A stretch of 64,000 nt of DNA from Butyrivibrio sp. (GTDB taxonomy: Bacteria > Bacillota > Clostridia > Lachnospirales > Lachnospiraceae): the NCBI GenBank assembly GCA_015056495.1, contig SVGC01000005.1, forward strand, positions 74,982 to 138,981. Reading direction: 5' to 3'. The notes below the pieces were generated by a model. It made no database searches. It worked only from the letters and a program-made list of their open reading frames with translations, and had not been told where the DNA came from. Both the position numbers and the translations under genes were made by a program. Shown here one piece after another: positions 753 to 2,018 of this stretch. Numbering within the stretch: the stretch's first letter is position 1; each line of letters opens with the position of its first letter.

Positions 753-1808
753 TTATTTACATTTCTTAACCATTTTTATGCAGTTACTAATATATGCCAC
801 ACAAGGCTTTTCAATATATTGGGTTAGCACTATTCCAGTTATTAGCGATTCTGCAGTAACTATCATCATTCTCAAAATTGCATTAAGCCTTATATCTGAC
901 AAAGTAAAACCGAATTTATCATAATACCTGATAAAAATCCCAAAATGAAATAAATATATAGCATATGAGTATTTCCCAAGTAATTTGACTATTGGATTAT
1001 TTAATATCCAAATAGGATAAATTTTCTGGCTGATAAACCACAATGCATACGCAATTCCCCAAAGTGTAAAACCAGAAAGCATATATACATTTGTTCCACG
1101 ATATATTAATCCATATTGCAATACTATACTTAAAAATATAATCACAAATGACAATACCTTTTTATGATTAACCATGCTCTCTAAATCAATAGCTTGCATT
1201 AGTCTGTATAATGCAATTCCAATGAGCATAACAGGTAGCTGATTCCAAAATCCAAAATCGGAAATATACGTATTCCATATATGTAAATCATCTGCAGGGA
1301 GTATTCTTAATTCCTGCAGATAGGGTAATCCAAAATGTAATACTATATTAGTTCCTACAATCCAAGATATAGCGGCAGATGTTGAATGAATTGCCTTGTA
1401 TAATAGTGGCATCATTACTATAAGAATTGCAATATCTCCCACATACCATTCAACTGAAATTACTGAATCCATGTAATAGGGAAAAAGACCATGTATAAAA
1501 AGAAGATGCGAAATAATGTTACTAAAAGTTACATGACCTTGACTTCCAAGCCAGTATCTACTATATCCTCCGGTTAACATATGAACTATTATTGATAGAT
1601 AGAACAAAGGAATTAAACGAATGAATCTCTTTAGAATCCAATAAAAAATGTCACGTAATTCTACATTACCATTCTTAATAATCACAACACGATCATAAGA
1701 TGAATACATTAAAAATGCACTTACTACAAAGAACATTTGACACATTCTTGCTCCTGATCCTGCAAACTGAGCTACTCTTCCTTCTCCCCACAATCCGGAA
1801 TGCACCAT
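753..1808 (-). CDS. Acyltransferase family 3 (membrane O-acyltransferase), body of a frame-interrupted gene
   Basis: The 351-aa polytopic membrane ORF is markedly AT-rich. In the same frame, upstream of the internal ATG, it reads DYIDALKGWAILGTIMVHSG, the canonical acyltransferase-3 N-terminal motif. That frame has no start codon and stops at 1905-1907 inside the repeat. The RBS+ATG at 1917 is in a different frame. Confidence 0.8.
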   Translation of the reverse strand: MVHSGLWGEGRVAQFAGSGARMCQMFFVVSAFLMYSSYDRVVIIKNGNVELRDIFYWILKRFIRLIPLFYLSIIVHMLTGGYSRYWLGSQGHVTFSNIISHLLFIHGLFPYYMDSVISVEWYVGDIAILIVMMPLLYKAIHSTSAAISWIVGTNIVLHFGLPYLQELRILPADDLHIWNTYISDFGFWNQLPVMLIGIALYRLMQAIDLESMVNHKKVLSFVIIFLSIVLQYGLIYRGTNVYMLSGFTLWGIAYALWFISQKIYPIWILNNPIVKLLGKYSYAIYLFHFGIFIRYYDKFGFTLSDIRLNAILRMMIVTAESLITGIVLTQYIEKPCVAYISNCIKMVKKCK

Positions 1809-1853
1809 TATCGTACCTAAAATAGCCCACCCTTTTAATGCATCAATATAGTC

Positions 1854-1905
1854 CTGTCTGTCTGTCTGCCTGTCTGTCTGTCTGTCTGTCTGTCTGTCTG
1901 TCTGT
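1854..1905 (-). repeat. Tetranucleotide SSR, (ACAG)13 on the coding strand (3 units, one GCAG variant, 9 perfect units)
   Basis: Counted by hand: CTGT x3, CTGC, CTGT x9 on the plus strand. The tract lies between the ATG at 1917 (AAGGAG RBS 8 nt upstream) and the conserved acyltransferase body. Confidence 0.95.
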
Positions 1906-2018
1906 CAACATTGTCATTTTGACTGCTCCTTGTCAACTATATCTTTAATAATATATTCATATTTTGAAAGCTATCAGCATTTCAAAAAAAACAGATTTTA
2001 ATCTAATCTCTCATTTTT

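Follow-up and report, generated by a model that had tools for sequence, protein, structure and literature searches.

Whether a commensal bacterium of the rumen can switch a surface enzyme on and off by gaining and losing short tandem repeats at the beginning of its gene is the question raised by a locus of Butyrivibrio sp. (Bacillota; Clostridia; Lachnospirales; Lachnospiraceae). The locus lies near the start of a stretch of 64,000 nucleotides, hereafter the window (GenBank assembly GCA_015056495.1, contig SVGC01000005.1, positions 74,982 to 138,981 of the forward strand; positions given below are those of the window unless another contig is named), and it comprises a gene for an acyltransferase-3 (AT3) protein in which a run of ACAG units stands between the start codon and the conserved domain. 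The initial annotation, made from the letters of the window, read this arrangement as a slipped-strand phase switch that is OFF in the window, and this reading has gained support from natural alleles, from the ON product and from orthologues, the three points at which the annotation itself had said that it could fail. The locus is, with good confidence, a simple sequence repeat (SSR) contingency locus by which a rumen Butyrivibrio turns on and off the translation of an accessory membrane O-acyltransferase of the AT3-only type. The parts of the switch are as follows.

1931..1926, minus strand: Shine-Dalgarno sequence AAGGAG, read from the sequence, its bases being identical in all alleles.
1917..1906, minus strand: start codon ATG (1917..1915), 8 nt after AAGGAG, with the leader ATG ACA ATG TTG (M-T-M-L).
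1905..1854, minus strand: the tract (ACAG)9 GCAG (ACAG)3, 13 units or 52 nt, in the OFF state, read directly.
1845..1843, minus strand: the TGA that closes the 24-codon OFF peptide of the 13-unit allele, from reading of the frame.
1853..753, minus strand: the AT3 body, from DYIDALKGW to the stop codon at 755..753; in the 13-unit allele its frame is +1 with respect to ATG 1917.

Re-reading of the minus strand bore out what the initial annotation had stated about this anatomy, namely the Shine-Dalgarno sequence with its 8-nt spacing from ATG 1917, the composition of the 52-nt tract, the stop after 24 codons, and an enzyme body in the adjacent frame that is closed by TGA 1907..1905 and has no start codon upstream. 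The tract was also recognized by Tandem Repeats Finder, which reports for the window an array of period 4 at 1854..1906 with 13.2 copies and a score of 99. Between TGA 1907..1905 and the stop codon at 755..753 the body frame is open, its first start codon being ATG 1808, and the distance between the two start codons gives (1917-1808) mod 3 = 1. When read in frame the ACAG tract translates into T-D-R-Q repeats, and units of 4 nt, which is not a multiple of 3, stand between ATG 1917 and the AT3 domain, the arrangement that characterizes an SSR contingency locus. In an in silico rebuild with 7 to 17 units only 9, 12 and 15 units gave a full-length protein (382, 386 and 390 aa, respectively), in agreement with the earlier claim that loss of one unit or gain of two fuses start and body, while every other number gave a peptide of 16-32 aa with a stop 4-8 codons past the tract. 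The two OFF frames terminate in TGLY or TILMH, and both 11 and 13 units yield peptides of 24 aa. In the enzyme's reading frame the GCAG interruption turns AGA into AGG, both of which encode Arg, whereas in each of the two remaining frames it causes an amino acid change. The tract is the sole tetranucleotide run of at least four units within the 64-kb window, in which no di-, penta- or heptanucleotide runs were found, and as the only such run it is no compositional accident.

The number of units is not invariant in nature, since 11, 12 and 13 units occur on otherwise identical public contigs. The same locus was recovered from public assemblies by look-up of the window's own proteins, and in an alignment of ~6 kb of the window with JGI 3300021326, JGI 3300023713, JGI 3300019371 and ENA ERZ27247035 there are zero differences outside the tract. 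Thirteen units are present in the window and in JGI 3300023713, 12 in JGI 3300021326 and ENA ERZ27247021, and 11 in ENA ERZ27247035; these public samples possibly derive from a few related studies, which makes the independence of the populations uncertain. The change in length is restricted to the perfect 5' block, which has nine, eight or seven units, and the GCAG unit and the three units after it are constant, so that only the longest perfect run varies, as slippage there would predict. In the 12-unit contigs the gene had been called by the original pipelines (JGI and ENA) from ATG 1917 as a protein of 386 aa, identical to the in silico repair, and the look-up placed 17 of the 23 holA-bearing contigs and 4 of the 12 DUF1653-bearing contigs in groups with a 386-aa representative, one representative per group having been read. 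Twelve units are the ON, full-length state and 11 and 13 units are OFF, and both states occur in nature.

Several other searches returned nothing. The exact flank sequence had 0 matches among JGI metagenome contigs, in a collection that does not hold this locus, and a protein-seeded scan of representative genome contigs found no relative, the species not being among the representatives. Exact look-up of hypothetical ON proteins with 6-21 units found none in a collection of 15 billion proteins, which is not counted as evidence; the collection has gaps, given that JGI and ENA contigs do carry a call of the 386-aa gene. Annotation of the OFF gene starts from internal ATGs and gives a protein of 330 or 351 aa, or it splits the gene, and phase-variable genes of this kind are systematically mis-annotated or lost from protein collections. 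It was also observed that three public contigs start or end inside the tract (1..45 of L002, 1..46 of L012 and 3955..3983 of L009, the L numbers being our handles for fetched contigs and loci), and that the two Logan contigs among them, L002 and L012, begin at different registers, with 29 and 30 nt of pure repeat. Such breaks fit mixed tract lengths in a suggestive way, are no proof of them and were not used as evidence.

The product of the ON allele has the properties of a complete AT3 enzyme, including the motif that is interrupted when the body is read from its own first ATG.

1800..1835, minus strand: K-X10-H motif KGWAILGTIMVH, residues K27 to H38 of the ON protein (K27-GWAILGTIMV-H38), in the predicted first transmembrane segment (TM1).

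The 386-aa product of the 12-unit allele matches the Pfam family Acyl_transf_3 (PF01757) over residues 21-363 and positions 2-324 of the 326 of the model, with 65.4 bits against a gathering cut-off of 31 bits, and the alignment begins at residue 21, which is the first residue past the repeat. From ATG 1808 the open reading frame (ORF) is aligned only from model position 49, with 53.7 bits. Repair of the N-terminus in silico, a check proposed in the initial annotation, thus extends the alignment to position 2 and regains the K-X10-H motif. It has been reported that R/K-X10-H in TM1 and RXXR in the first cytoplasmic loop are essential in AT3 proteins (PMC9558356); the second of these motifs is present in the ON protein as R96-F-I-R99, and both are predicted to have the corresponding membrane location. 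As ATG 1808 lies inside the K-X10-H motif, a product started there would lose K27 and most of TM1. In a crude hydropathy scan of the ON protein 10 windows exceeded the threshold, several of them overlapping, which amounts to ~6-8 separate hydrophobic segments. Pfam returns PF01757 alone for the 386-aa protein and an SGNH domain is absent, so that the enzyme is AT3-only and stands outside the OafA/OafB-type class of AT3-SGNH fusions; the label 'OafA/YrhL' on the homologue from Pseudobutyrivibrio ruminis is a generic name. No NCBIfam model matches the protein, and no useful relative with a solved structure was found by sequence search. A phage origin of the gene was considered and rejected, the nearest phage match (from a Bradyrhizobium phage) being only 24% identical. 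From knowledge of the family and the context of its orthologues, the enzyme most likely O-acylates, and probably O-acetylates, a cell-surface polysaccharide.

In homologues that are 34-61% identical to the protein, the first codon lies only a few residues ahead of the motif in every case, as in MNSDDRQGYIDALKGW and MTDRFDYIDAIKGW (P. ruminis), and none of the orthologues shares the out-of-frame layout of the window, their N-termini being uninterrupted with 5-12 residues before DYIDALKGW. The closest orthologue, from P. ruminis, is 59% identical, and its gene begins TTG ACAG ACAG A TTT GAC TAT (5001..5030 of L004, FNZX01000005.1), the counterpart of this TTG start being TTG 1908..1906 in the window leader. 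The P. ruminis gene has a proto-repeat of two units at the homologous site, and the tract of the window is therefore a derived expansion. Neighbors of the P. ruminis orthologue are GDP-mannose pathway genes and GT2 glycosyltransferases, and another orthologue is flanked by a GT2 gene and a second AT3 gene; as these orthologues lie within polysaccharide loci, a surface polysaccharide is predicted as the acceptor.

In the window itself the gene belongs to a segment that differs from its surroundings both in composition and in its distribution among strains.

762..2350, minus strand: accessory cassette of ~1.59 kb between holA and the DUF1653 gene, delimited by comparison with sister strains.
2066..2294, minus strand: 53-bp tandem repeats at the 5' end of the cassette, with 4 exact copies and 1 degenerate copy of the core ATTACGGATTYAAATA.

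The cassette contains the 53-bp repeats, expression signals, the tract and the AT3 gene. The GC content of the gene is 0.326 and that of the cassette 0.317, as compared with 0.386-0.400 in the flanks and 0.388 in the window, so the AT-richness noted in the initial annotation is real, and the gene is accessory, as had also been proposed: in sister strains with flanks that are 96-98% identical it is missing and the DUF1653 gene directly follows holA. The cassette is absent in L133-L136, of which L133 retains nothing, while other strains keep remnants. Variable parts of its left end persist, accompanied in L137 by 70 nt of AT3 sequence (window 1267..1198) and in L139 by 40 nt (1214..1175), and unaccompanied in L138, L140, L142 and L147. 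These remnants indicate that the cassette is ancestral and was lost through at least four different deletions, a pattern which suggests a gene of fluctuating value. The final AT3 codons (C-K-stop) are the original end of holA. Variants of holA encoding 336 aa were tried as markers of cassette carriers and proved wrong, as the strains with P0021 and P0025 do not have the gene. Proteins of the window fall, at 90% identity or more, into clusters with proteins titled 'MAG: ... [Butyrivibrio sp.]', and several records of related contigs carry labels such as XIEF21 or SHIW14, which we take to be those of ruminant gut metagenome surveys. Copy number of the 53-bp repeat is equal across the alleles; its core was found elsewhere in the window as one match with 2 mismatches, and in the other fetched loci only as copies of this locus.

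Tracts of the same unit are found well beyond this strain. A scan for (ACAG)7 in one genome per species returned at least 120 loci (L013-L132), and among the matches listed 58 of the tracts, (ACAG)n of at least seven units, came from Clostridia and 12 from other Bacillota; many of these tracts are at contig ends, which suggests that assemblies break there. Two AT3 genes resemble that of the window in layout, one of Blautia schinkii with (ACAG)15 in the ON state (L074 692..751) and one of Bilifractor sp. with (ACAG)21 in the OFF state (L078 5296..5379). Both tracts end directly before the K/R-X10-H motif, the proteins are 22-28% identical to that of the window and to each other, and the ACAG layout in genes so distant would appear to be a case of convergence. 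Among proteins of a Blautia AT3 family that are 85-87% identical (L150-L155) there are 3, 6, 9 and 15 units, together with truncated gene calls that resemble OFF alleles, and this family is located in a polysaccharide locus (flippase, GLF, NTP-transferase).

Other genes with a TDRQ tract, listed where the tract is internal to a contig, encode a GtrII glucosyltransferase with the tract at the 5' end in the TDRQ frame (L058), hsdS specificity proteins of several families with the tract in the central conserved region (L020, L024, L094, L106 and L129), EcoRI-family DNA methyltransferases (L070 and L082), a hybrid histidine kinase (L125) and a GGDEF-type protein (L030), the last two having been assigned by sequence inspection. 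A further class is intergenic (L014, L017, L021, L025, L028, L035, L087, L091, L109, L117, L118 and L130), with the repeat inside a short leader ORF, followed by an inverted copy TCTGTCC and a T-run, often by a second hairpin, and downstream by genes for large proteins with a signal peptide, of 819-1390 aa. By analogy, these intergenic tracts look like an attenuation-type phase switch of the kind described for pil1 of Streptococcus gallolyticus. Rfam gave no match at the locus in a scan of the window, nor at the tracts of seven of the intergenic loci. The tract of Butyrivibrio sp. MC2013 (L013) is also intergenic and has no visible gene association.

The start region of the AT3 gene shares one more element with these loci.

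1910..1936, minus strand: promoter-like module TTGACA (1936..1931), 15 nt, GACAAT (1915..1910), which overlaps the Shine-Dalgarno sequence and the start codon.

In the window this module ends 3 nt before the tract, counted from G 1906, and a scan of 600..2500 for promoter and terminator consensus gave nothing above shuffled sequences and no terminator. Among the matches listed, 43 of 91 tracts are preceded, at a distance of 1-5 nt, by a near-consensus element (mostly TTGACA-17-nAnAAT), as compared with 0-6 of 91 when the same test is shifted upstream, and 40 of the 43 modules are from Bacillota; many of these loci are mutually homologous, so that the independent cases number fewer than 43. The Shine-Dalgarno sequence and the start codon often lie between the two hexamers. 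The module may be a promoter directed into the repeat, or else a portable 'start module' that has been conserved, and its recurrence suggests a portable start- or promoter-plus-repeat unit, or a link of transcription initiation to the birth or maintenance of the tract. It is conceivable, and put forward here as a tentative proposal, that gut and rumen Clostridia, together with some other Bacillota, build multi-gene ACAG 'phasomes' as a clade-wide system that includes AT3 genes (at least three unrelated), GtrII, hsdS, methyltransferases, sensor kinases and leader/terminator switches ahead of giant secreted proteins, very often with the TTGACA-17-nAnAAT-N3-5 module.

With regard to the way in which the switch would operate, translation is expected to begin at ATG 1917 and would have to traverse the ACAG tract. 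If there are 9, 12 or 15 units, M-T-M-L-(TDRQ)n would be read through into the AT3 domain, and the AT3 enzyme of such ON cells would carry ahead of TM1 a short, hydrophilic (TDRQ)n tail that presumably lies in the cytoplasm. At other unit numbers it would stop 4-8 codons past the tract, and OFF cells would make a peptide of 24 aa. Units of 4 nt would be gained or lost in the perfect 5' block at replication, presumably by slippage and reversibly within a clone, so that cells would move between the two states and a population would always contain some with and some without the acyl modification. Phages, or recognition by the host and by predators, would be the likely selective agents.

Alternative explanations concern either the level at which the tract acts or the meaning of its variation. 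The tract could act mainly on the transcript, with the promoter TTGACA-15-GACAAT firing into it and its length altering transcription, RNA stability or attenuation; this is suggested by the frequency of the module before tracts relative to the shifted controls, by its presence in the window, and by the intergenic tracts of other Clostridia, which precede genes for large secreted proteins and are followed by a hairpin and T-run. However, the spacer of 15 nt in the window is sub-optimal, the one usable start codon would be missing from a transcript begun in the tract, there is no hairpin of the terminator type downstream, and the logic of the frames alone fully explains ON and OFF, so that an effect chiefly at the RNA level is considered unlikely. 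It is still harder to reconcile with the data that every tract length permits synthesis of the enzyme, through initiation at ATG 1808 or through ribosomal frameshifting on the repeat, and that the tract tunes an N-terminal extension only. ATG 1808 does open an ORF of 351 codons, and gene callers chose this ATG or a later one, but the product (M-V-H...) loses K27, TM1 and 11.7 bits of Pfam score, no convincing Shine-Dalgarno sequence precedes 1808 and the homologues all begin upstream of the motif, all of which makes synthesis from this start very unlikely.

As for the variation itself, assemblers evidently struggle at the repeat, as the three contigs that break inside it (L002, L009 and L012) illustrate, and it might be argued that the differences in length are artefacts of assembly or sequencing. 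Yet the 52 nt of the tract fall far short of typical Illumina read lengths and of the k=141 with which the ENA contigs are labelled, the 12- and 13-unit alleles each occur in two contigs, the former from different pipelines (JGI and ENA), the differences are of whole units and affect the perfect block only, and the flanks are error-free across 6 kb; an artefact is in consequence extremely improbable. A different objection is that an accessory gene is decaying and that its microsatellite is merely unstable, the ON and OFF alleles representing neutral drift. Such decay would fit the repeated deletion of the gene in related strains, the OFF state of two of the three alleles seen, and an AT-rich composition that gives the gene a foreign look. 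Against decay, the body of 383 codons is without any other lesion in every contig, the exact ON allele is common, the sole interruption of the tract is silent in the ON frame, AT3 genes with no more than 22-28% identity show the same layout again, with natural length variants, and the tract has grown from a proto-repeat of two units. Neutral decay is thus regarded as improbable.

A number of observations nevertheless weigh against a translational contingency switch and temper the confidence placed in it. The alleles are known from assembled contigs, so that switching within a clone, at whatever rate, is a prediction, and the word 'independent' is uncertain for samples that perhaps come from a few related studies. 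The OFF state of two of the three alleles, together with the deletion of the gene in relatives, also fits a gene on its way out. With 7-9 perfect units the array is short as compared with the classic Haemophilus loci, and the rate of switching may therefore be modest. In this strain the gene lies outside any polysaccharide cluster, and its acceptor glycan is a prediction from family and context. Finally, the promoter-like module 3 nt before the tract means that the tract might also, or instead, act at the RNA level.

To our knowledge, work on SSR contingency loci has dealt almost exclusively with pathogens adapted to a host. A Gram-positive example is wciZ (cps15bM) of Streptococcus pneumoniae serotypes 15B/15C, which reportedly encodes a capsule O-acetyltransferase toggled by a (TA)n tract; both this gene and that of the window would be SSR-toggled in Gram-positive bacteria, whereas wciZ is said to have a dinucleotide repeat and belongs to a pathogen. 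The contingency architecture of the Haemophilus type that the initial annotation had recognized is supported by oafA of Haemophilus influenzae, which has the same layout, that is, an AT3-family O-acetyltransferase of surface glycans with intragenic tetranucleotide ON/OFF switching (PMC10505976, PMC9558356), its GCAA tract being present in 58% of genomes (PMC10505976). The two differ in the repeat unit (GCAA versus ACAG), in phylum, in envelope, that of Haemophilus being Gram-negative with lipooligosaccharide, and in lifestyle (a pathogen versus a rumen commensal anaerobe); moreover, the protein of the window is short and AT3-only, and the likeness to oafA is through the shared Pfam family.

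Closer in phylogeny is icaC of Staphylococcus aureus, a Firmicute AT3-only gene in which an intragenic tetranucleotide reversibly controls exopolysaccharide by slipped-strand mispairing (PMC7911514, PMC9558356). A paper cited in PMC7911514 gives its unit in the title as TTTA, and icaC differs from the locus described here in this unit, the tract of the window being an array of 7-9 units at the extreme 5' end, before TM1. The Oac/OafB-type genes of Shigella and Salmonella are likewise accessory AT3 genes away from the main glycan cluster, and these O-antigen acetyltransferases alter recognition by phages and antibodies and are often phase-variable (PMC9558356); unlike the present gene, they are switched through Dam/OxyR-type methylation or lysogeny and not by an SSR. 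The pil1 locus of S. gallolyticus, with a GCAGA-repeat leader peptide and a terminator (PMC3894217), is like the intergenic ACAG class and unlike the locus of the window, where the tract is inside the enzyme's own frame and no terminator follows.

The initial annotation had also stated that it was not aware of a description of such a switch in gut or rumen Clostridia. Full-text literature searches, with most subscription journals outside their coverage, found no description of SSR phase variation in Lachnospiraceae, Butyrivibrio or gut Clostridia, which agrees with this statement as absence of evidence only, and the literature on phase variation in gut commensals that was found concerns inversions (e.g., PMC11741434). 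The mechanism is hence a known one, of the oafA/icaC kind, and what appears to be new is the setting, namely a commensal of the rumen and gut Lachnospiraceae. Public metagenomes contain one strain of this non-pathogenic rumen Butyrivibrio in both ON and OFF form, and with such natural alleles the evidence is more complete than is usual for a locus known from metagenomes. The locus also opens onto a wider ACAG repertoire in gut Clostridia, for which the literature searches returned no description and which involves glycans of the surface, the specificity of restriction and proteins resembling adhesins. Should this hold generally, hypermutable repeats would partly drive strain-level heterogeneity of the surface and of the epigenome in dominant gut Firmicutes, while being invisible to tools that find invertons and often mis-annotated as truncated genes, and this would bear on phage-host dynamics, phage therapy, colonization studies and the annotation of metagenome-assembled genomes.

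Elsewhere in the window, ordinary features unrelated to the locus include a T-box leader and two tRNA genes (33622..33835, 46384..46457 and 50319..50390).

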